From: Candidatus Versatilivoraceae bacterium
Lineage (GTDB): Bacteria > Acidobacteriota > Terriglobia > Versatilivoradales > Versatilivoraceae
Assembly (NCBI GenBank): GCA_965197895.1
Contig: OZ240232.1
Coordinates: 330,318-394,317, forward strand
Length of the DNA: 64,000 nt
Reading direction: 5' to 3'
The position numbers were made by a program, and so were the translations under genes. The notes beneath the pieces are model-generated. The model was not told where the DNA came from and did no database searches. It was given only the letters and a program-made list of their open reading frames with translations. Below are positions 4,253-40,104 of the stretch, in pieces. Position 1 is the first letter of the stretch. Each line of letters starts with the position of its first letter.

Positions 4253-5482
4253 CTAGCCGGTCAGGATTGCCCCTTCGGCCTCGAGGCTTTCGGTTTCGGC
4301 GTCGCTGTAACCATGTTCGCGCAGCACTTCCCGTGTGTGTTCGCCCAGGACAGGTGCACCTCTCTCCAGACAGGTTGGTGTGGCGGAAAACTTGACCGGC
4401 ACCCCCAACGTTTTCACCTTCCCCAGGCGGCTGTGCTGGACCTCCGTCACCATTTGCCGTTCTTTCACTTGAGGATTGGCGTGCATGGCGGCGATGGAAA
4501 GCACCGGTCCAGCCGGAATCCCTGCAGCCTGGAACTTCTCCAGCCAGAAGGCGGTGGTTTGTGTTTGAAAGTAGGGAGTCAGGATTTCGACTAGCATAGC
4601 TAAATTCTGCATCCGTCCCGCATTGTCGCCGAAACGGTCATCTCGGCCGAGCTCGGGAACCCGGAGTACATCGAGCAACCGTTCCCAGTTGGCCTGGTTG
4701 GCGGCACCGACGTTGACCCAGCCATCGCGGGTTTCAAAGGACTGGTAGGGAGCCATCAATGGATGGGCCGAGCCCATCGCGACCGGGGAGACACCCGTTG
4801 CCAGATAGATGGCCGACTGCCAATAAGTGTGAACGATGCCGGCTTCAAGAAGGGAGGTGTCCACCGCCTGTCCTTTTCCTGTGCTTTGCCGGTGAACATA
4901 GGCCGCAACGATTCCCAGAGCCGCCAGGATTCCCGCGGTGATGTCTGTCATGGGGGCTCCCACCTTCACCGGTGCCCGGCCGGGCCCTTCGCCCGTAATG
5001 CTCATCAAACCACTCATTCCCTGGGCGATCAGATCAAAGCCTCCCCGGTCGGCATAAGGACCGGTCTGACCGAAGCCCGAGAGCGAACAGTATATGAGGC
5101 GAGGGTTATCCGGTTTCAACTGGTTGTAGCCCAACCCCAGTTCATCCATGGTGCCCTTGCGGAAATTTTCAATGACAACGTCACTGTTACTCGCCAGTCG
5201 CCGAAAGACCTCCCGACCCTTCTTGGTCTTGAGGTTGAGTCCGATGCCGCGCTTGTTGCGATTCATCATCATGAAGGCGGCCGACTCCCCCTGGATCTCT
5301 GGCGGAACAGCTCGCCTGGTATCGTCTCCACCAGGAAGGCGTTCCACTTTGATGACGTCTGCCCCTAAATCGGCCAGCATCAGTCCGCAGGTGGGCCCCG
5401 CCATGACGTGGCTGGCTTCCAGCACTTTCATGCCAACCAGCGGACCGGCACGTGTTGGGGCTTGCTTTTGGCTCATGGTCAA
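4253..5482 (-). CDS. CoA-transferase family III (CaiB/BaiF-like)
   Basis: 409 aa. The N-terminal LEASHVMAGPTCGLMLADLGADVIKVE is the typical family III CoA-transferase signature. Confidence 0.75.
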   Translation of the reverse strand: MTMSQKQAPTRAGPLVGMKVLEASHVMAGPTCGLMLADLGADVIKVERLPGGDDTRRAVPPEIQGESAAFMMMNRNKRGIGLNLKTKKGREVFRRLASNSDVVIENFRKGTMDELGLGYNQLKPDNPRLIYCSLSGFGQTGPYADRGGFDLIAQGMSGLMSITGEGPGRAPVKVGAPMTDITAGILAALGIVAAYVHRQSTGKGQAVDTSLLEAGIVHTYWQSAIYLATGVSPVAMGSAHPLMAPYQSFETRDGWVNVGAANQANWERLLDVLRVPELGRDDRFGDNAGRMQNLAMLVEILTPYFQTQTTAFWLEKFQAAGIPAGPVLSIAAMHANPQVKERQMVTEVQHSRLGKVKTLGVPVKFSATPTCLERGAPVLGEHTREVLREHGYSDAETESLEAEGAILTG

Positions 5483-6258
5483 CCTGCCTTAAATCGTGGC
5501 TTGGTCTTTTTGAGGAAAGCCCGATACCCTTCCTGGTGGTCCTCGGTTCCAACGATCTCAAACCCTTGGTCCACTTCCGCCGGCGTCAGCGGCGCAGGAT
5601 CCAGGAGGCGGTAGGCAAACTTCTTGTGCAGGCGATTGGCCAGGGGAGCACCGTCCGCGATGCGGCGGGCGGTGGTGTAGGTTTCCTTCTCGACCTCGCT
5701 GTCCGGAACGACGCGCGTGACCAAGCCCTTGATCTTTGCTTCCCGGGAGCCGAAGACGCGACCTTCCAGAAGGATCTCCAGGGCGGCCGCCCGGCCGACG
5801 AGATCAATCAGTGCCCGGATCTCAGGGTAGGCCATGGTGATGGCGATGCGATTGACCGGGACCCCGAAACGGCTGGACTCGCCACAAATTCTGAGGTCGC
5901 ACATGGACGCCAACTCTAAACCCCCACCGACGCAGACACCTTGGATCATGGCAATGACCGGGTGCTGACAGTCCCTGATTGCTTGCATTGCCTTTTGGAT
6001 GAGGTCGCCATAGTCTCTCGCTTGCTGGCGATTGGAGCGGTGTGCCGCAAATTCGGAGATATCGGCGCCCGGCGAGAATGCTTTCCGGCCGGCCCCCCGC
6101 AGCACAATGCAGCGTAAGGTCTCATCGGACGAGAGATCTCGCATGACCTGTCCCACGCGTCCCCACAGGGCCCTGCTGAGAGCATTCAGCTTGTCGGGTC
6201 GGTTCAGAATGACCGTCGCAATGTCTTGCTCTCGCTGAGTTAAGAGAATGTCGCTCAT
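5479..6258 (-). CDS. Enoyl-CoA hydratase/isomerase (crotonase family)
   Basis: 259 aa with the crotonase oxyanion-hole pattern (FSPGADISEF.., CVGGGLELA). It overlaps the downstream CoA-transferase gene by 4 bp, which suggests an operon. Confidence 0.75.
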   Translation of the reverse strand: MSDILLTQREQDIATVILNRPDKLNALSRALWGRVGQVMRDLSSDETLRCIVLRGAGRKAFSPGADISEFAAHRSNRQQARDYGDLIQKAMQAIRDCQHPVIAMIQGVCVGGGLELASMCDLRICGESSRFGVPVNRIAITMAYPEIRALIDLVGRAAALEILLEGRVFGSREAKIKGLVTRVVPDSEVEKETYTTARRIADGAPLANRLHKKFAYRLLDPAPLTPAEVDQGFEIVGTEDHQEGYRAFLKKTKPRFKAG

Positions 6259-6490
6259 CTCTGTGAGACGCCATGGACCTGACTGGGTCTTGCCTTCAAT
6301 CCGGTTAGCCGGTGCAATCTCAACGGATCAATCCGTGATGGGTTTGAAATGCGATTCTCGAGCAGTCAGCCACTCGATTGGCTGTAGCCCTCGGCAGTCA
6401 GGTGAGGTGCACAAGCCATTCACAAATATCCTTTCGCCAGCAGTCTTGTCAAGGTTGTGTAACTGTCCATGAGTAAGCAGCGGGCCAGGG

Positions 6491-29913: not shown

Positions 29914-31905
29914 AGAGGCACGTGGGCTGTAGCGCTTTCCGGCTGCCAGTTGGGTCCGAACGTGAGCCTTCCCGACTGTGCCGGGACCACTCGATGTGCC
30001 GGGTATCCTTCGAAGTGGCGCCATCGCGGTGAAAGACGGTTTCCGGGAGCCGAACCGGCACCATTCGAACGCAGGAAACCCTTCGGTTGCTCGAACCGTC
30101 TCGATTGCCTCAGGGGCGATGACCCGAATCGAGGGGAGCCGACGCTATCCGGTATCGGCGAAGGGAACCGCGCCGACCAGCGAGCCCATCCGATCCCGGC
30201 GTCCCGCCCGTGCCTGGGCCAGGGCCATCATCACCGTCATCGCCAGCCCGACCCGTGCCGTCATCCGGCTCCGGCCGCGCAGGAAGTGCCGCTCGAACCC
30301 GAAGTCGTTGTCGAGGCGGCTGTAGATCCGTTCCAGCGCACTGCGACCCCGGTAGCCCCGCTTCCAGGACGGGCTGCCGTAGGGGGTCGGAGTGAAGAGG
30401 CGCCGATCCTGGGTGGCCAGGGGAATCCGTACGATGCGGCCGAAAGCCCCCGCCTGCGAGCCTGCCGCCCGGTAACAGCTTTCCCGGCCGGCACAGCCAT
30501 ACCCATAGGCCGCCGCCGGGCAGCGGTACTTCAGCCTCCCCCGCTCCGCCTCAAAGCCCTGGAAGGCCATCGGTCGCTGGGTGCCGGTTTCAGGGCAGAG
30601 GCAGCCCACTTCCCCCTTTTCGGTATGCACGATGGTATCGGCCCGGCCCGGATACAGCGGTCGCGTGATCCCTTGGGTGGGGTCGTAGCCCGGCTCCTTC
30701 TTCTCCTGCTTCCACAACTCCCGGGGTTCGATCAAGGGACGGATGCCGTAGTCGTCCCATAACTTCGCCTTGACCGGCCCGCTGTCGAGGCCGCGGTCCG
30801 CGCTGAAGTCCCGGCACCGCTTCGCCAGTTCCGGCGTCTCCTCGAACAACTCCTCCGTCATCGCCTCCAGTTGTTTCACCTCCGATTGCGAGGCCCGCCT
30901 CACCCGGCAGGCCACCGGAATCTCGTAGCGGGTGTCGGCGATCAGGTGCACCCGATAGCCGAACCAGGTCTTGATCTTCCTCCACAGCTTCCCCGTCTTG
31001 CCGTCCACCCCCCGCGTCTCGTGCTTCCCCCAGTCCGCATCCGGATCCGAGGTCTTCCCCCTCTTCCTCCCCGTCGAATGGCTCTCCACCGCCTTCCCGT
31101 CGTACCCCAGATGCTCCCCGAACCCCTCCACCTCCTCCATCAGTTGCTCCCGCACGTGCCGCATCATCGCTGCAATCCCTCCCTGCTTCTCCTCCTGCTT
31201 GACCACCGCACTGAGAAACCGCGAGAAGTTCCAGGCCGACGGCACCCCATCCCCTCTCGGTACCTCCTTCAACACCACCTTCGGTCCCTCGGCACCCACC
31301 ACCACCTCCCGCTTCGGCCGCCTCCGCGGTCCCAGCCGATCAAACCCGCACACCTCCAGAAGCGCCGGGTTGCGCCTCAGTTCCCGCAACAGCGATTGTA
31401 TCGAGACATGCTGGAAGACGATCCCCGCCACCAGCGCCCGCCACATCGCCCGGATCGGATAGTCGTCCCGGCCCCGGCCCCGACGCTGCTCCAACGCCGC
31501 CAGCAGCTCTTCGTCCGGCAGTGCCTTCAGAACCATCTCCAGACGCTCCAGTTCAGGCCGGCGTTCCACATCGCTCCACCAAAACAACCCACGGTTATGA
31601 TTCACCACCTCGCTTGCTCCTGGTCGCGGATCTCAGAGTTAACTTCAATACATTCTGTCACATAGAGACCCACCCAGCCAGCAGTTTCCCGCTGGCAGCG
31701 GCTCAGGCTGACCTCTGTTTGCCTCCTCCCCACCCCCTCCAATGATTCCCGTACCCTCTCGTCCGACCTTTGGGGTGAAATCCGGCCATTCCCCCATCCA
31801 CGCCCTTCCAAACCCTTGATAATCCTGAGTGTCCTTGGGGTAAAATGTTTTGCACCCCTTGAAAACCTTGGCTTTTCAAGGGGTTCCCAACAGCGCACAC
31901 GCCTC
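29914..31905 (-). mobile_element. IS element copy 2 (IS5/IS1182-like), apparently intact, inverted relative to copy 1
   Basis: The outer inverted repeat CAGCGCACACGCCTC (31891-31905) has 1 mismatch. The inner end is a degenerate repeat gagaggcacgtgggctg at about 29914. Its 5' leader (31609-31905) and 3' tail (29914-30144) are colinear with copy 1. Confidence 0.7.
30145..31608 (-). CDS. DDE transposase, IS5 family / IS1182-like (DUF772-like N-terminus, Cys-rich C-terminus)
   Basis: 487 aa with a YRVHLIADTRYEIP DDE core. The C-terminal cysteines (CLCPETG..RCPAAAYGYGCAGRESC) match the IS1182-group pattern. The family assignment is from memory. Confidence 0.7.
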   Translation of the reverse strand: MVNHNRGLFWWSDVERRPELERLEMVLKALPDEELLAALEQRRGRGRDDYPIRAMWRALVAGIVFQHVSIQSLLRELRRNPALLEVCGFDRLGPRRRPKREVVVGAEGPKVVLKEVPRGDGVPSAWNFSRFLSAVVKQEEKQGGIAAMMRHVREQLMEEVEGFGEHLGYDGKAVESHSTGRKRGKTSDPDADWGKHETRGVDGKTGKLWRKIKTWFGYRVHLIADTRYEIPVACRVRRASQSEVKQLEAMTEELFEETPELAKRCRDFSADRGLDSGPVKAKLWDDYGIRPLIEPRELWKQEKKEPGYDPTQGITRPLYPGRADTIVHTEKGEVGCLCPETGTQRPMAFQGFEAERGRLKYRCPAAAYGYGCAGRESCYRAAGSQAGAFGRIVRIPLATQDRRLFTPTPYGSPSWKRGYRGRSALERIYSRLDNDFGFERHFLRGRSRMTARVGLAMTVMMALAQARAGRRDRMGSLVGAVPFADTG

Positions 31906-34633: not shown

Positions 34634-36358
34634 ATGACTCAGGAAACCATGGATGGAGCCCAGGCATTGGTTAGAGGCCTGGAAAATGAAGGAGTGGAGT
34701 ACATTTGGGGGCTGTCGGGTGGAGCGGCCATTCCGATTTTCGACGCCCTCGTGACCACCAAAACCAAGATCAAGCTGGTGTTGGTCAGGCACGAACAAGG
34801 GGCGTCCCACATGGCAGACGGCTACGCCCGAGCCACGGGCCGACCCGGGGTTGTTCTGGTCACCAGCGGCCCGGGTGCCACCAACACCGTGACCGGGATT
34901 ATGACCGCCCACATGGATTCCATACCGATGGTCGTTTTAACCGGCCAGACCGTGACTCCCATGCTGGGCAAGGACGCCTTCCAGGAAGCTGACGTCTTCG
35001 GCCTGACCATGCCGATCGTCAAGCACAGCTACTTGATCAAGAACACCGCCGACATCCCGAGAATCGTGAGAGAGGCTTTCTATATTGCCAATACCGGACG
35101 GCCGGGGCCGGTGCTGATCGACGTTCCCAAGGACGTGAGCCAGGGAGCTTTTTCCGGAGACCTTCACGCGGAGATGGATTTGCCGGGATACCGGGTGGAG
35201 AACCGCCTGGATCATAGCCGAATCCTGGAGATCGCCGGGGCCCTCAACCGTGCCCGAAAGCCGATTTTGCTGGTGGGTCATGGGGCTCTGGTAGCCAACG
35301 CCTCTAGCGCTGTCAGGACGTTGGCAGAGAAATTGGGCGCCCCGGTGACGACGACCTTGTTGGGCAAAGGAGCCTTTCCGGAATCCCATCCTCTATCACT
35401 CGGCATGTTGGGAATGCATGGGACGGCTTATGCCAATAAGGCCATGGTGGAGTGCGACCTGGTCATGTCGATCGGTTCTCGCTATGACGACCGTATTGTT
35501 GGACAACCACACCGTTTTTGTAAGGACGCAGTCCGCATCCACGTCGACATCGATGAGGCCGAAATCGGCAAAATGATCAAGTGTCATCACTGGTGTGTTG
35601 GAGACGCTCGAGTGATCGTGCAGGAACTGATCAAGCATGTGGGACCCCTGAACACTTCGGACTGGTTGAGACATCTGGAGGGGTACAAAAAGAAATTTCC
35701 ACTCAAGTACAAGAAGCGCGGCGGCCTGAAAATGCAACATGTCTTGGACGAGTTACATAAGCTGACCCGGGGCAGGGCCATCATCTCCACCGACGTCGGG
35801 CAACACCAGATGTGGGCTGCCCAGTTCTGCAAGACGGACTACCCTGCGAACTGGCTCAGTTCCGGTGGTGCAGGCACCATGGGGTTTGGGCTTCCTGCTG
35901 CCATAGGCGCCCAGTTTGGCCGTCCCAAGGATTTGGTGGTGGCGGTGGTGGGTGACGGTGGATTTCAAATGACGATGAGTGAGCTGTCGACCGCCTGCGT
36001 TCACAAACTGCCGATCAAGGTCATCATTCTCAACAATCACTATCTGGGGATGGTGCGGCAGTGGCAGGAACTGTTTTATGGGGAACGCGAGAGCGGCGTG
36101 GATTTGGAAGGCAACCCAGACTTCGCCAAGCTGGCAGCTGCCTATGCGGGGGCTAAAGGGTTCACCTTGAAACGGCCGGCCGATGTCAGAAAAATCCTCC
36201 AGCGGGCCCTCGACTACGATCAAGGCCCGGCGGTGGTGAACGCGGAATGCGAAAAGACGGACAACGTCTATCCCATGATCCCCGCCGGCAGGGCGCTCGA
36301 AGACATGCTGATCGAGAAGCCCAAGACAAGGTTGGAGAAACCCAGCGGATCCACCTAG
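34634..36358 (+). CDS. ilvB: Acetolactate synthase large subunit (biosynthetic, TPP/FAD)
   Basis: 574 aa, colinear with IlvB (GAQALVRGLENEGVEYIWGLSGGA.., GTMGFGLPAAIGAQ). Confidence 0.85.
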   Translation: MTQETMDGAQALVRGLENEGVEYIWGLSGGAAIPIFDALVTTKTKIKLVLVRHEQGASHMADGYARATGRPGVVLVTSGPGATNTVTGIMTAHMDSIPMVVLTGQTVTPMLGKDAFQEADVFGLTMPIVKHSYLIKNTADIPRIVREAFYIANTGRPGPVLIDVPKDVSQGAFSGDLHAEMDLPGYRVENRLDHSRILEIAGALNRARKPILLVGHGALVANASSAVRTLAEKLGAPVTTTLLGKGAFPESHPLSLGMLGMHGTAYANKAMVECDLVMSIGSRYDDRIVGQPHRFCKDAVRIHVDIDEAEIGKMIKCHHWCVGDARVIVQELIKHVGPLNTSDWLRHLEGYKKKFPLKYKKRGGLKMQHVLDELHKLTRGRAIISTDVGQHQMWAAQFCKTDYPANWLSSGGAGTMGFGLPAAIGAQFGRPKDLVVAVVGDGGFQMTMSELSTACVHKLPIKVIILNNHYLGMVRQWQELFYGERESGVDLEGNPDFAKLAAAYAGAKGFTLKRPADVRKILQRALDYDQGPAVVNAECEKTDNVYPMIPAGRALEDMLIEKPKTRLEKPSGST

Positions 36359-36575
36359 GAGTCTGCGCCGTGGAACACTGCCGGGGCCTTCCGGTGGACT
36401 ATGATTCCTATAATTGGCGAGAAATCCGCTGGGACAAGAACGTTCTACCCTATTCTCAGCAAAGCTTCGACCTTATTATGGAAGACTGTCCCTGAAAATT
36501 TTTCTGCGGCGCAGACTCCTGGATCGATGCCGCGGCCCGACGTCTGGTAGGGTCCGTCTCTGCGAGAGAAGACCT

Positions 36576-37082
36576 ATGGAAAACTTTCTGAGTGGCGACA
36601 CCCATACTTTGAGCGTTTATGTATCGAACAAGCCGGGTGTCCTGGCCAGGATCGCCCAGGTTTTCGCCCGTCGCGGATACAACATCGATTCCCTGGTTGT
36701 CTCCTCTTCGGTGGATGGCAAGTTCTCCAGAATGACCATCACCACCAAGGGCGGTCCGCAGGGGTTGGAACAAATTATCAAACAGGTGAACAAGCTGATC
36801 GACGTGGTGCACTGTGTGGACCACACGGGCGAAAGCGCCGTTACCCAGGAGCTTGCCCTGATCAAAGTTGCAGCAGGGCCGGAAGATCGCAGCGAGGCCC
36901 TCCAGGTGGCGGAACACTTCAAATGCAAGACGGTTGACCTCACCGAATCCTCCATGATCCTGATGGCGACAGGCGGCACGGATAAGATCGATGCCCTGGT
37001 CCGCATGGTTCACAAATACAAGATCATCGAGCTGGTACGGACTGGGAAAGTGGTCATGGCCAGAGGCGACGTGGTGACCTGA
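36576..37082 (+). CDS. ilvN: Acetolactate synthase small (regulatory) subunit
   Basis: The ACT domain HTLSVYVSNKPGVLARIAQVFARRGYNIDSL is the IlvH/IlvN signature. Start ATG is at 36576. Confidence 0.8.
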   Translation: MENFLSGDTHTLSVYVSNKPGVLARIAQVFARRGYNIDSLVVSSSVDGKFSRMTITTKGGPQGLEQIIKQVNKLIDVVHCVDHTGESAVTQELALIKVAAGPEDRSEALQVAEHFKCKTVDLTESSMILMATGGTDKIDALVRMVHKYKIIELVRTGKVVMARGDVVT

Positions 37083-37422
37083 GAGGGACGGAGACTCTGA
37101 ACCCAACGTTCCGCTTCTGACCGCCGGTTTGGCTTCCTCCATCTCCACCCTCGGAGATGTAGATCCCCTAACACTCCCACCAACCCCTTTTTACCCTATC
37201 GGATCCCAACGGCACACTGAGCCTGACCTTTCTTTTCCTCGAAGTCAGCGGCGATAGCTGTGGCTATTCCGTTCACCGATCCTCCGGTTTCTTCCGGTTC
37301 CCCTGAAGCTCAGGAGAGGCTTCGCGGGCACGGTCGTAGATCGCTCGAGCCGCGAAGTGGTTGGCTCGCTGCTCTTCCGGATTGCTTCCGTTCGCCTCAA
37401 ATAAAAAGTGTGAAAAAAGTCC

Positions 37423-37451
37423 TTGACAAGAGGATGGTCCCCCTTTATTCT
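37423..37451 (+). promoter_or_regulatory. Sigma70-like promoter (TTGACA-17 nt-TATTCT) upstream of the RHH/EXLDI-like gene
   Basis: A -35 element TTGACA at 37423-37428, a 17-nt spacer and a -10 element TATTCT at 37446-37451. It is embedded in a locally AT-rich stretch. Confidence 0.45.
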
Positions 37452-37533
37452 CGAGTTGAAGTTGGATATAACATGTAACTAAATATGGTTAATCGATGCA
37501 AAAAACTCTCTTCTGAAGGAAAAGGAAACTACT

Positions 37534-38151
37534 ATGCCCCCCAAGACTCTGTACGTGAAGGATGAGCGGCTTTGGGAAAAAGCCAAGCGTCTGGCCGGCC
37601 ATCAAGGCTTTTCAGGAGTCATCATGCAATTGCTTGCCAAATGGGTGGCAGACAAGGAAAAGCAAGAGGCCATGAAGAGTGACAAAGAGTTCACTGAAAT
37701 CGAACTGTGGGTGGGCGGTAACATAGCTCCCAGCGCAGATCTCCCCGATGACCAGATAAAAGAGGACCACAAGATTGTCTTCACCGGACGGTTGCTCGCT
37801 AGCAGCCCACGGTACGAAGACGAACTTGTTCCAGATGTGGAAGTCTATCAGATGAAGAGCGGGCGACTGGTCGTCTACAAGGTTTATCGCGATTATTCCG
37901 TTGCAACGGATCAAGAATCCCAAGCTACATACAAGGTCTTCTCTAACTTCGAGGGCCTCCGGCAAAGCTCTGTCTTCTCTGACTATGAAAAGATGCTCGA
38001 CGAAAAGTGGGAGGGTCTGGGAATGGAGTTGACCACCCTGGCAGCAGAAGATGAAGAAAAATTTGTAGAAAAAATAGCAGCAATCAGCTTGCAATTCCAG
38101 CGAGACATCACCAATGCCCTCGGAGCCGAGTTGGTTATTCGCATTGATTAG
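37534..38151 (+). CDS. Hypothetical protein with RHH-like N-terminus, resembling the EXLDI family (TIGR04342-like)
   Basis: The N-terminus MPPKTLYVKDERLWEKAKRLAG..FSGVIMQLL matches my recollection of EXLDI proteins (MPNKTIYVSDEDL..RAQELAG..LSAAI..) and looks like a ribbon-helix-helix. The C-terminus ends ..VIRID. The gene is about 47% GC against a 60% background. Confidence 0.45.
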   Translation: MPPKTLYVKDERLWEKAKRLAGHQGFSGVIMQLLAKWVADKEKQEAMKSDKEFTEIELWVGGNIAPSADLPDDQIKEDHKIVFTGRLLASSPRYEDELVPDVEVYQMKSGRLVVYKVYRDYSVATDQESQATYKVFSNFEGLRQSSVFSDYEKMLDEKWEGLGMELTTLAAEDEEKFVEKIAAISLQFQRDITNALGAELVIRID

Positions 38152-38250
38152 TCGCCCAGGTATGTTACCAAGCGCTCCAAGTTGGGAGCGAAAGGCCGCC
38201 GAATGATTGGTGATCGAAGAGACCTAGACAATGCCTTAGGAGGACACACG

Positions 38251-38553
38251 ATGCGACTAAGCGAACACGCAGAGGCCCGCGGCCGGTCACGAGGCGTTGA
38301 GATTTCCTCTCTCATACTGATCAAGCGTTTCGGTCATTCCGTGAGAGTCGCGGGCGGCGCGAAAGTCTGGATTGCCAACGAGCGAGAGCGCAGAGAAATC
38401 CTGAGACATGCGAGGGCTGAGCAACTCAGCAAGAGACAAGTAAAGGCCGTGCAGCGAAACTTCGAGCGGACGGCCCCACCCTATTTCGTCGAAGCGTCCG
38501 ACGGTACGGTCATAACTACAGGCCGTCGGACGCGGAAAATTCACCGCCGCTGA
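38251..38553 (+). CDS. DUF4258-like small protein
   Basis: An AGGAGG Shine-Dalgarno lies 8 nt upstream of the ATG. RLSEHAEARGRSRGVEISSLILIKRFG ... DGTVITTGR matches the DUF4258 pattern (S.HA..R..ERGI..EEV ... VVITVY). Confidence 0.45.
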   Translation: MRLSEHAEARGRSRGVEISSLILIKRFGHSVRVAGGAKVWIANERERREILRHARAEQLSKRQVKAVQRNFERTAPPYFVEASDGTVITTGRRTRKIHRR

Positions 38554-38808
38554 CGAGGGGCGGCGGGACACCCCCGGCCACTGTCGACTTCTTGGGAGCG
38601 CAGACTCGACGGTCATCGATTCTGAGCAGTTCGCGGTTCGCCGGTGATAGGTCGTGGCAAGGCTTCCGAGTCACAGATGATGATGAATCCTGGTATCCGT
38701 GGACGCTGTGCCAGTGCCTCTCCGGGTACCAGCGGTGTAAGCCGGCTTGAGTTTCGCTTTTGATTCGCCTAGAATACGAGGATGAGGCTGGCCAAGTCAG
38801 GAGGTGAG

Positions 38809-39462
38809 ATGGCACTAACCAAGCGTCAATATCAAGTCCTTGCTTTTCTGGACTCCTTTGTTCGCCGCAACGGCTATTGTCCCAGCTACGACGAAGTCAG
38901 AAAAAACCTGGGTCTTGCCTCCCTGGCCACGGTGCACAAGCACATGAACACTTTGGAGGGAAAGGGCTTTATTCGACGGGACCCCAATCGGAGTCGCTCC
39001 ATCGAGGTGATCGACCGACGTCCCATGATCGAGGCAACCGCCTCAAGGAAGGATACACTGGCGGACCTTAGGCTTCTGGACACCGCTCAATCTCTACCCT
39101 TATTGGGTCGAATTGCGGCCGGTCGGCCGGTTGAGGCCTTTGCTGATGAGGAGACGTTGTCTCTGCAGGAGTTCGTCGGAAACAAGAACGTCTACGTCTT
39201 GCAGGTCAAGGGAGACTCCATGATCGAGGACCACATTTGTGATGGAGACTATGTGGTGGTGGAGAGCACCCGCCGCGCTGACAACGGGGATACGGTGGTT
39301 GCCCTTGTCGAAGGGAACGAGGCCACGCTGAAACGATTCTATCGCGAAGGAGATGGTCGCCTCCGACTCCAACCTGCCAACTCATCCATGGAACCGATTC
39401 TCATGGAGGACGGGGAACTGGAGATCCAAGGCAGAGTCATTGGCGTCTTACGCAAGTATTAG
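38809..39462 (+). CDS. lexA: LexA repressor (wHTH + S24 peptidase)
   Basis: LTKRQYQVLAFL..GYCPSYDEV, the Ala-Gly cleavage site (RIAAGRP), and the S24 motifs (GDSM and KRF). Confidence 0.85.
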   Translation: MALTKRQYQVLAFLDSFVRRNGYCPSYDEVRKNLGLASLATVHKHMNTLEGKGFIRRDPNRSRSIEVIDRRPMIEATASRKDTLADLRLLDTAQSLPLLGRIAAGRPVEAFADEETLSLQEFVGNKNVYVLQVKGDSMIEDHICDGDYVVVESTRRADNGDTVVALVEGNEATLKRFYREGDGRLRLQPANSSMEPILMEDGELEIQGRVIGVLRKY

Positions 39463-40104
39463 CCGCACGACTTTTAGTCCGGCCCTGCCGTCCGGTTCGG
39501 GAGTCCAGGGACCATGGCTTTCAGGCAAGGGCCGCCCCCGCCCCCCACGACGGGGCGGATCATTCGAGGGTGAAACATCTGAAAGGTTGAGGCCTGTGAG
39601 AGGTTCCACAAGCAGCCGCGAAGCGGCGGCAGCAAATAGCCGTGGGCGTCAGCCCATGGTTCAGGGTCGCCCCCCGCCCCGAGCCGCGAAGGCGGCGGCA
39701 CTGACCGGCGTCGAAAAAGGCACTCCTCATTGGGCGTGAGAGGTTGGACCCAACCAGACCACTGATCTTGGCGATCCTGTTCATCCATGGGAGAAGATGA
39801 TTCAACATGGATAGACAGGATGGGCAGGATAAGGAGGATTGCAGCCAGGCAAGCGATTGCCAGCCCGGTGTCGGGTTTTGCAGGATTAGGGTGGATCGTG
39901 GGAATCCCCCCACTAGCCACTAGCCACTGCCTTTTTGTTTCAGGCAAGTGGGTTGTCAGCCAAGACAGAGCTCTCAAACCGAATTCAGGCAAACGATTGA
40001 GGCAAGCTCTCCCAACCGACGTGTTGTTTTTCACGTCGATATGGATGCGTTCTTTGTCTCGGTCGAAGAGCTGTTTCGTCCCGATTTTTGTAGGAGAAGT
40101 TGGC

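Follow-up and report, generated by a model that had tools for sequence, protein, structure and literature searches.

The two genes that lie directly upstream of lexA in a 64-kb stretch of DNA from Candidatus Versatilivoraceae (the whole stretch is called the window here), ORF1 and ORF2, constitute a mobile and mosaic pair with a promoter of its own. On balance, we lean towards the interpretation that these two genes and their promoter make up a type II toxin-antitoxin-like conflict module, self-contained and mobile, that belongs to Terriglobia (Acidobacteriota). The pair joins an EXLDI-type protein and a protein related to the DUF4258/Ntox49 branch of BECR RNases, two families without published function, in one strictly conserved arrangement, and this pairing yields a testable hypothesis for both families, namely a repressor/antitoxin and an RNase toxin. 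No paper on the ORF1-ORF2 pair was found in the literature, in agreement with an earlier sequence-only reading of this DNA that considered it undescribed. To our knowledge, almost no conflict systems of Acidobacteriota have been studied experimentally.

Locus and gene content

The promoter, the two genes and lexA were all found where the sequence-only reading had placed them (Table 1). For ORF2, the gene, its AGGAGG and its length were confirmed, and the start that had been implied is about one base off. All three genes are on the same strand, with 99 nt from the ORF1 stop to the ORF2 start and 255 nt from ORF2 to lexA.

Table 1. Features of the gene pair and of lexA (positions in the window)
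Feature	Position	Strand	Remarks
A-rich stretch AAAAAGTGTGAAAAAAGTCC	37402..37422	+	Abuts the -35 hexamer upstream; possible UP-like element, function inferred
Promoter TTGACA-17 nt-TATTCT	37423..37451	+	Sigma-70-type; -35 37423-37428, -10 37446-37451; 10/12 positions in consensus scan
AT-rich leader element GGATATAACATGTAACTAAATATGG	37464..37488	+	Candidate operator for the ORF1 N-terminal domain
ORF1	37534..38151	+	205 aa, acidic, pI 4.8; proposed antitoxin/repressor
Shine-Dalgarno AGGAGG of ORF2	38238..38243	+	Direct reading; ATG 7 nt downstream
ORF2	38251..38553	+	ATG 38251; 100 aa, very basic, pI 11.8; proposed RNase toxin
lexA promoter TTGAGT-17 nt-TAGAAT	38747..38775	+	Consensus scan
Candidate LexA box TTTC-N7-ATTC	38752..38766	+	Within the lexA promoter spacer
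lexA	38809..39462	+	217 aa; start set from orthologues beginning MALTKRQ

Both ORF1 and ORF2 are real genes. Homologues of ORF1 fall into 44 clusters at 90% identity, and those of ORF2 into 17 clusters in a single-sequence search and about 49 close clusters in a profile search. These homologous clusters, together with dN/dS values of ~0.2-0.4 for ORF1/ORF2, led us to drop the reading of the two frames as spurious.

An AT-rich islet had been claimed for the entire interval 37380-39462. This is correct for the promoter and ORF1 (37380-38151), which have 47.4% GC, the mean of the window being 57.7% rather than 60%, and it does not extend to ORF2 (58.7%) and lexA (55.2%). Since these two genes are not AT-rich, the islet comprises ~770 of the 2083 claimed bases. 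The interval 37380-38151 is the lowest-GC 772-bp stretch of the 64 kb, with 0.03% of the windows of that size equally low. The GC3 values are 0.58 for ORF1, 0.62 for ORF2, 0.64 for lexA and 0.72 for ilvB/ilvN.

ORF1 and the EXLDI superfamily

Profile comparison places ORF1 in the EXLDI superfamily as a divergent member. The protein is composed of a conserved N-terminus (residues ~1-50) that is probably a ribbon-helix-helix (RHH), a beta-sheet domain (~54-136), a variable helical region (~141-180) and a conserved C-terminal tail ending in ...ALGAELVIRID, the N-terminal 60 residues being the most conserved part. The EXLDI model TIGR04342 matched residues 78-127 with 18.3 bits (E 0.0022), below its cut-off of 32. 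Weak matches to this model were also obtained in 9 of 27 close ORF1 homologues (best 4.3e-4), and matches in 18 of 53 wider relatives. Alignment of the ORF1 family by hhalign with 12 proteins ending in E-x-LDI, eight of which match TIGR04342 (best 1.6e-19), gave a probability of 99.7% and an E-value of 6e-26 over 129 columns covering the RHH-like N-terminus and the beta-domain. The EXLDI relationship proposed in the sequence-only reading is borne out by this alignment despite the sub-cut-off TIGR04342 score. The C-terminal end of ORF1 (...GAELVIRID) is not E-x-L-D-I, but a variant at the equivalent position, and the endings form a continuum from ...AELVIRID to ...DWAVWID and ...E-x-LDI, with intermediates ending in xWID.

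The RHH assignment of the N-terminus, also proposed earlier, remains plausible on the basis of weak matches, either sub-threshold or to a PDB structure. The RHH families of Pfam did not match ORF1 or its close homologues. Sub-threshold matches to RHH antitoxin families were found among the 53 wider relatives (VapB_antitoxin in 10, CcdA in 3 and PSK_trans_fac in 2), and the top PDB match of the N-terminal profile of the ORF1 family was the CopG-family RHH protein 9kkd_A (E 0.01), aligned in register. In the AlphaFold monomer model of ORF1, residues 11-48 form one long low-confidence helix and no RHH. The 150-residue folded C-terminal part has no structural match; the structural neighbours of ORF1 are weak and scattered, with NTF2-, SnoaL- and cystatin-like sheets among them. 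Scans of ORF1 and ORF2 against Pfam, PADLOC and PHROGs returned no matches, the NCBIfam scan returned the weak EXLDI match of ORF1 alone, and PDB sequence searches with the profiles of both families gave nothing meaningful. No published function for the EXLDI family was found in the literature.

Most EXLDI-superfamily proteins are ~150-180 aa long, share the RHH-like N-terminus and are encoded without an ORF2-like partner. No ORF2-like neighbour was present beside classical EXLDI relatives (L021, L022) or beside ORF1 relatives devoid of the RHH (L011-L018), so the superfamily is not generally an antitoxin family.

ORF2 and the DUF4258/Ntox49 proteins

The ORF2 product is predicted to adopt a colicin/RelE-like BECR fold, to which its model (pLDDT 85) is structurally similar. 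In a Foldseek comparison with the PDB only BrnT stood out, with a probability of 0.90 and TM scores of 0.52/0.64, and no E-values were significant; nearly all of the fold matches are toxins. The RelE/ParE-type fold that had been ascribed to the family agrees with this prediction. The predicted order of elements is helix, helix, b1, b2, a two-helix insert, b3 and b4. Residues H6, R10, R14, G28, V87, T89 and G91 are invariant in the ORF2 family and in ~30%-identical DUF4258-like relatives, and they lie within the first helix and the last strand. The topology and the positions of these residues match the colicin-like layout and the active site described for DUF4258. The histidine usual in the last strand of ORF2 relatives (GHRT) is an arginine in the window protein (GRRT).

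A transitive profile link and a common motif indicate that ORF2 is distantly related to DUF4258/Ntox49. The Pfam model PF14076 (gathering cut-off 25 bits) gave no match to ORF2 even at E-values up to 10, and one of 17 family members reached E 0.075. The ORF2 family profile retrieved ~30%-identical proteins at E-values of 1e-10 to 1e-4, including P0097 (5.9e-10), which passes PF14076 with 30.2 bits against 25; P0095, P0108, P0101 and P0113, found by the same profile, scored 16-20 bits, just under the cut-off. The DUF4258-like nature suggested earlier thus holds by the profile link through P0097 and by the fold, and fails on the Pfam model itself. Polymorphic toxin systems include a toxin domain, Ntox49, that overlaps with DUF4258. 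No characterised DUF4258 member or target was found in the literature. Distant ORF2 relatives (L008-L010, L031), including those in integrase-linked elements, have no obvious upstream antitoxin.

Pairing and mobility

Every locus found through a close ORF1 homologue has ORF1 and ORF2 side by side in the same orientation. These loci represent seven distinct contexts, namely the ilvBN/lexA slot (the window, L003, L004, L023-25 and L030), L001/2, L005, L006, L007, L026-28 and L029. The co-localisation of homologues that had been put forward as a check was therefore observed in 7/7 contexts. For at least 12 further pairs of ORF1 and ORF2 clusters, the longest contigs agree in size. The gap between the genes ranges from a 4-bp overlap (L003/L004) to ~100 nt. 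The C-terminal part of ORF1 carries a charge of -14, and ORF2 one of +14. The neighbours in contexts without lexA include IS21 IstAB, IS481/IS30/IS3-type transposases, tyrosine integrases, ApeA-HEPN and RelB-YafQ. Two copies of the module occur in one genome, and the GC content of ORF1 is ~49-51% where that of the host is 58-63%.

The module is mobile and mosaic, and its alleles at the lexA site have been exchanged. In the comparison of the window with L025, ORF1 has a dS of 0.22 and ORF2 one of 0.38, and the values for ilvB, ilvN and lexA are 0.70-0.74; the synonymous divergence of the pair is ~2-3 times below that of its flanks. In addition, loci that are otherwise ~98% identical differ by a replacement of the ORF1 centre, and ORF2 stays unchanged. 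Replacement of the ORF1 centre and low dS are typical arms-race traits, and it is reasonable on this basis to consider the pair a candidate new defence or addiction module of Acidobacteriota.

The order ilvBN-pair-lexA-cca-fpg is common to several related lineages and is thus not the result of a recent island insertion. A recent genomic island was rejected since the atypical composition is limited to the promoter and ORF1, the window locus has neither an integrase nor flanking repeats nor a tRNA next to it, and every related locus seen (L003, L004, L023-25, L030) has the ilvN-lexA slot filled. The horizontal acquisition suggested in the sequence-only reading is accordingly untenable as a recent island and stands as exchange of mosaic alleles. 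A phage origin was likewise rejected, as no relatives were present in a viral contig collection.

Promoter and leader of the pair

The pair has its own promoter. Only two promoter-like sites, that of the pair among them, were detected in 37000-39800, and shuffled sequences gave a mean of 0.9. TTGACA-17-TAnnnT is present at the equivalent place in the homologous modules L003, L006, L007 and L029, and in a weaker form in L001. The sequence AAAAAGTC(C)TTGACA occurs in all nine distinct module promoters, which lie in different genomic contexts; ATAAATAT (at most one mismatch) occurs in eight of them and AACATGT exactly in five. AT-rich dyads are found near -10/+1 in each type of module promoter, the other types bearing their own at or near -10, such as ATACTTATAAGTAT in L023 and AATAGTACAT-N17-ATGTACTATT in L027. 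A single operator consensus was not derivable across the nine promoters. The conserved promoter elements accompany the module into contexts without lexA. The leader RNA of the pair is unstructured (z +1.6), and an Rfam scan gave no match within the pair.

The neighbouring lexA gene

By its domain matches, the downstream gene is lexA, with a DNA-binding domain and an S24 peptidase domain (PF01726, 1.1e-18; PF00717, 6.1e-29; TIGR00498, 193 bits against a cut-off of 111). Its promoter is near-invariant in L003, L004, L023-25 and L030, and the surrounding spacer has diverged. In the candidate LexA box, TTTC and ATTC are kept in all lexA promoters compared, and the N7 varies (GCTTTTG vs GCCCGTT). 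The direct repeat GTTC-N7-GTTC is the LexA box of Alphaproteobacteria, which TTTC-N7-ATTC resembles (PMC4951493), and the title of Mazon et al. (2006) ties a box of the GTTC-N7-GTTC type to Acidobacterium capsulatum.

The search for a LexA operator, which had been advised for both spacers, thus produced a candidate box upstream of lexA and none in the pair promoter. The TTTC-N7-ATTC of the lexA promoter is absent from the latter, no GTTC-N7-GTTC with at most one mismatch occurs at 37380-37533 (the LexA motif of the present lineage may be a different one), and neither TTC-N8-TTC nor GAA-N8-GAA was seen there by eye. Sites of the GTTC-N7-GTTC type show no enrichment across the window (52 observed vs 61 expected). 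The spacer between ORF2 and lexA varies from 255 to ~600 bp, with an inverted-repeat insertion in L023-25, and no intrinsic terminator was found in it, which leaves room for read-through. The SOS link raised in the sequence-only reading is not upheld, as lexA adjoins the pair in one of seven contexts and has its own promoter and candidate box. The position of the pair beside lexA is best read as positional, not regulatory; adjacency to lexA is here no evidence of SOS control.

Proposed function and alternative explanations

For the module we infer toxicity, neutralisation, DNA binding and an RNA target. ORF2 would be the toxin, most likely a metal-independent RNase that cuts tRNA or mRNA, with catalysis through the invariant His6, Arg10 and Arg14 of the first helix and residues of the last strand. 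ORF1 would act as an acidic three-part antitoxin and repressor. Its RHH N-terminus may dimerise and bind the AT-rich dyads at or near the module promoter, resulting in autoregulation, and its central EXLDI-type beta/helical domain would be exchangeable. A conserved part of ORF1 would hold ORF2 inactive, the C-terminal tail being a likelier candidate than the variable centre. In one lineage the site between ilvBN and lexA is a conserved place of the module, and lexA is driven there by its own promoter with the candidate LexA box. A bolder and unlikely extension is that ORF1 is a modular 'sensor-antitoxin', in which a constant RHH head and tail repress and inactivate ORF2 and a swapped EXLDI cassette recognises a changing trigger, e.g., a phage protein. 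If true, this would represent a new abortive-infection-type defence system and the first function for the EXLDI superfamily, as RHH-tethered sensor domains. As a lesser part of this extension, transcription of the de-repressed module may continue into lexA.

A non-toxic regulatory pair is a possible but somewhat doubtful alternative to the toxin-antitoxin-like module. ORF1 would then act as a transcription factor of the RHH kind and use its EXLDI-type domain to sense a ligand or protein, and ORF2 would be a small basic nucleic-acid-binding co-regulator or effector with a BECR-like shape that causes no killing or arrest. The scarcity of ORF2-like partners among EXLDI-superfamily proteins agrees with this, as do the swapping of the ORF1 centre beside a constant ORF2, the non-conserved histidine of the last strand, and the distant ORF2 relatives in integrase-linked elements with no evident antitoxin. 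Against these points, the fold matches of ORF2 are nearly all toxins, His6, Arg10 and Arg14 are invariant at ~30% identity in the layout of a colicin-like BECR RNase active site, and strict pairing, opposite charges, mobile contexts and multiple copies are traits of toxin-antitoxin systems.

That the pair is LexA-repressed or co-transcribed with lexA, being induced by damage or modulating LexA levels, appears very unlikely. Some E. coli toxin-antitoxin loci, e.g., dinJ-yafQ, yafNO and tisB-istR, are LexA-regulated, and the pair lies directly upstream of lexA in the same orientation, in an order (ilvBN-pair-lexA) kept in L003, L004, L023-25 and L030 and with room for read-through. It is opposed by the six of seven contexts without lexA, into which the promoter elements travel with the module, by the separate lexA promoter with its conserved candidate box, by the variable and interrupted spacer, and by the lack of GTTC-N7-GTTC, TTC-N8-TTC and GAA-N8-GAA in the pair promoter, the first of these being no commoner than expected in the window. 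Still more improbable is a remnant of a polymorphic (secreted) toxin, with ORF2 as an orphan Ntox49-type cassette and ORF1 as its immunity protein. The overlap of DUF4258 with Ntox49 and the NTF2-, SnoaL- and cystatin-like neighbours of ORF1 would suit such an origin, but in every locus ORF2 is complete at 90-100 aa and has a start codon and a ribosome-binding site of its own, it has no trafficking domain or upstream toxin body, its partner lies upstream and has a DNA-binding-type N-terminus, and none of the contexts showed secretion-system genes.

Comparison with known systems

Compared with the EXLDI family (TIGR04342), ORF1 differs by a longer and variable helical insert ahead of the tail, and its branch is the only one seen here with a BECR partner gene. 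The module resembles the LexA-regulated E. coli loci dinJ-yafQ, yafNO and tisB-istR in being toxin-antitoxin-like and near the SOS system; it differs in having no LexA-box-like site in its promoter and in residing mostly away from lexA. With DUF4258 (PF14076)/Ntox49, ORF2 shares an N-terminal H-A-x-x-R-x-x-x-R-x-I motif, a C-terminal V-I-T-x-G strand and a predicted topology of pre-helix, helix and four strands. The DUF4258 gene order has been tabulated as antitoxin then toxin, which is also that of ORF1-ORF2 (PMC11980606). The ORF2 family differs by the two-helix insert between strands 2 and 3, the window protein has a further 10-residue insert, and both this protein and its close family are under the Pfam cut-off.

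The type II modules of the RelBE/ParDE/DinJ-YafQ type are distinguished by a short unstructured toxin-wrapping antitoxin tail, whereas proteins of the ORF1 family have 205-270 aa and a folded, exchangeable EXLDI-type domain. In addition, ORF2 matches no RelE, ParE or YafQ model. Overall, the module and these systems are alike in the order of an antitoxin-like gene followed by a toxin-like gene, in an acidic, probable RHH protein upstream of a small basic protein with a predicted BECR fold, in a strong promoter of their own with dyad-symmetric AT-rich sequences, and in their occurrence in several copies and in mobile contexts.

Layout and composition of the locus

The sequence-only reading placed a promoter and two genes upstream of lexA, and all of these elements are found in the sequence. 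The gene of the EXLDI-related protein (ORF1) and the DUF4258-like gene (ORF2) are separated by 99 nt, AGGAGG lies 7 nt before the ORF2 ATG, and lexA follows on the same strand after 255 nt. A consensus scan of 37000-39800 returned two promoter-like sites, that of ORF1 among them, against a shuffle mean of 0.9. The AT-rich islet exists but extends over less than had been proposed: GC is 47.4% at 37380-38151, the lowest of any 772-bp stretch of the 64 kb, with a window mean of 57.7%; ORF2 (58.7%) and lexA (55.2%) are ordinary. GC3 is 0.58 in ORF1, the lowest among local genes, and 0.72 in ilvB/ilvN.

Features of the module and of lexA (window positions; L023 and L027 are comparison loci)
Feature	Position	Strand	Details
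Sigma-70-type promoter TTGACA-17-TATTCT	37423-37451	+	10/12 consensus positions
AT-rich dyad, window	37464-37488		GGATATAACATGTAACTAAATATGG; AACATGT core common to 5/9 modules
AT-rich dyad, L023			ATACTTATAAGTAT
AT-rich dyad, L027			AATAGTACAT-N17-ATGTACTATT
ORF1	37534-38151	+	205 aa
ORF2	38251 (ATG)-38553	+	100 aa
lexA promoter TTGAGT-17-TAGAAT	38747-38775		near-invariant in related loci; surrounding spacer diverged
lexA	38809-39462	+	LexA_DNA_bind and Peptidase_S24; TIGR00498, 193 bits

The sole Rfam match in the window, the Acido-Lenti-1 RNA motif (RF01687; 39614-39659, minus strand; 47.3 bits, gathering score 37), sits in the unusually long lexA-cca spacer (~640 bp) and fits an Acidobacteriota origin. 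A 27-bp sequence downstream of lexA (39551-39577) has an inverted, 96% identical copy in the ORF2-lexA spacer of L003 (7510-7536) and may be a short dispersed repeat. ARAGORN called a 97-nt tRNA-Ile of unusual length and anticodon (AAT) at 30826-30922 on the minus strand; the call may be spurious, or the tRNA may be atypical or contain an intron.

Pairing and exchange of the module

ORF1 homologues form 44 clusters at 90% identity; for ORF2, a single-sequence search gives 17 clusters and a profile about 49 close ones, and no Pfam domain was found in either set. In all loci retrieved with a close ORF1 homologue, the gene immediately downstream, in the same orientation, is an ORF2 homologue, with spacings from a 4-bp overlap to ~100 nt. 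Co-occurrence, which the sequence-only reading had proposed to check, is thus confirmed. Seven distinct contexts were seen: lptD-ilvB-ilvN-pair-lexA-cca-fpg (window, L003, L004, L023-25, L030), adjoining rpe (L001/L002), behind IS21 IstA/IstB (L005), flanked by IS481/IS30/IS3-type transposases (L006), a second copy within one genome (L007), tyrosine-integrase islands, one with an ApeA-HEPN gene (L026-28), and beside a RelB-YafQ pair (L029). One Candidatus Versatilivorator MAG (Terriglobia) holds two copies of the pair. The dN/dS of both ORFs is 0.2-0.4 (flanking genes 0.05-0.14), indicating purifying selection more relaxed than on the flanks; ORF1 and ORF2 are real, conserved genes. Downstream of the pair, the integrase-island copies have conserved ORFs of 99 and 167/172 aa (6243-7243 of L026-L028) with no Pfam or PHROG match.

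The horizontal acquisition proposed earlier is better restated as exchange of the occupant of the ilvN-lexA slot. Since the slot is filled in all related loci seen, the module is not a recent island; integrase, tRNA and border repeats are lacking at the window locus. ORF1 has 49-51% GC in hosts of 58-63%, and identity to the window at this slot is 44%-83% for ORF1, 91-93% for ilvB and 84% for lexA. Between the window (37534-38553; flanks 34634-37082 and 38809-39462) and L025, dS is 0.70-0.74 in ilvB, ilvN and lexA but 0.22 in ORF1 and 0.38 in ORF2. The roughly 2-3 times lower divergence of the pair suggests an exchange of the module that postdates the split of the hosts. L025 and L030 are 97.7-98.9% identical over ~10 kb save for ORF1 residues ~61-190, which are replaced (5346-5535 vs 5346-5682), giving proteins of 205 and 254 aa; the two proteins agree at 57 of the first 60 residues and at all of the last 16, and ORF2 hardly differs (98.9% DNA identity). 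Likewise, the window and L003 align over the promoter and N-terminus and over the C-terminus and ORF2, with no alignment across 37794-38088. Accordingly, the module is mosaic, with an exchangeable central ORF1 cassette.

Identity of the two proteins

Exhaustive searching of 1.84 billion representatives with a profile yielded 169 ORF1 relatives, mostly of 150-180 aa, with a common N-terminus (MPxKTIYVxDxxLWxxAxxLAG..LS..I..AL..V) and C-terminal endings that form a series from AELVIRID via DWAVWID to E-x-LDI. TIGR04342, the EXLDI model, was matched by 18/53 of the relatives. Although ORF1 itself gives a sub-threshold match, hhalign of its family against an E-x-LDI set (12 proteins, 8/12 matching the model) gave a probability of 99.7%. 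The EXLDI relation proposed from sequence is thus upheld, and ORF1 is a divergent, enlarged member of this superfamily, on which no functional literature was found. A ribbon-helix-helix (RHH) at residues 1-50 is plausible from weak but consistent signals and from the conservation of this segment, the highest in the protein, although the AlphaFold monomer model did not form it. The remainder is modelled as a five-stranded sheet with helices (pLDDT 85-92 across large parts, less in loops) with no convincing structural neighbour. ORF1 is acidic, with a net charge of -14 over residues 51-205. Classical EXLDI relatives and those without the RHH have no ORF2-like neighbour, so the pairing is specific to this acidobacterial branch. 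In soil metagenomes, the gene after RHH-less relatives encodes, in place of an ORF2 homologue, a basic Cys/His protein of 89-90 aa (L012 855-1124; L018 4187-4459) containing HVYHCPRCLTWHVGH, which may represent an alternative partner of this domain.

ORF2 does not pass the Pfam DUF4258 model (PF14076), but its family profile reaches ~30%-identical proteins at E 1e-10 to 1e-4, one of which passes and four of which fall just under the cut-off; the DUF4258 likeness is retained at a distance. From the family alignment, AlphaFold gives a confident model (pLDDT 85). Foldseek matched it to BrnT only (probability 0.90), with no significant E-value, so a colicin-like BECR fold is predicted with moderate confidence. 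H6, R10, R14, G28, V87, T89 and G91 are invariant over the family and these relatives and lie on the first helix and last strand. According to a 2026 preprint, the active site in colicin-like BECR RNases, DUF4258/Ntox49 included, lies on these elements, and the characterised members of this RNase group mostly cut tRNA. The last-strand His frequent in relatives (GHRT) is Arg in the window protein, which is extremely basic (pI 11.8). In tabulated data on DUF4258 the antitoxin gene comes before the toxin gene and no target is known, and the family "remains undescribed in the literature" (PMC11980606).

Promoters and the relation to lexA

The motif AAAAAGTC(C)TTGACA precedes ORF1 in 9/9 distinct modules irrespective of genomic context, mostly with a -10 hexamer 17 nt further on; the promoter belongs to the module. 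The leader RNA is not structured, and Rfam returned no match for it. At the -10 or just past it, every promoter type carries an AT-rich dyad, a plausible candidate operator that the RHH head would bind; no common operator consensus emerged. In L029 (~4880-4913) and L005 (~5970-6003) the ORF1 start codon directly follows the promoter. The L029 arrangement (TTGACA-17-TAACAT, 6 nt, ATG) suggests a leaderless transcript; gene callers began this ORF (P0043) 31 codons late, and four similar clusters appear to have been truncated likewise.

An SOS-linked module, which the sequence-only reading had suggested as a possibility, is improbable. Read-through from the pair into lexA is possible, since no terminator was found between them, but lexA has its own promoter and is absent from 6/7 contexts of the pair. 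Within that promoter, TTTC-N7-ATTC keeps both tetranucleotides in related loci while N7 varies, and resembles the Alphaproteobacteria direct repeat GTTC-N7-GTTC (PMC4951493), a box type tied to Acidobacterium capsulatum in the title of Mazon et al. (2006). Motif search and direct reading revealed nothing similar in the pair's promoter. The ORF2-lexA spacer of L023/L024/L025 is lengthened to ~600 bp by what looks like a small MITE-like insertion, absent from the window, with two perfect 26-bp inverted repeats ~180 bp apart (~6253-6485).

Proposed function

An autoregulated type II toxin-antitoxin-like module is the reading towards which we lean. In this model, dimers of ORF1 would contact the AT-rich dyads with the RHH head and also hold ORF2, a putative colicin-like RNase, inactive. 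As ORF2 stays the same when the ORF1 centre is swapped, contact would more likely be through the constant C-terminal tail (or head); the variable centre may serve as a sensor. The main rival, a non-toxic regulator-effector pair, is considerably less probable, and a polymorphic-toxin remnant is more improbable than even the SOS link. If the cassette were the trigger sensor of a defence system, the module would be of higher interest. Overall, the logic is that of type II toxin-antitoxin systems, built from two families without described function, and the antitoxin-like ORF1 has an unusual three-part architecture.
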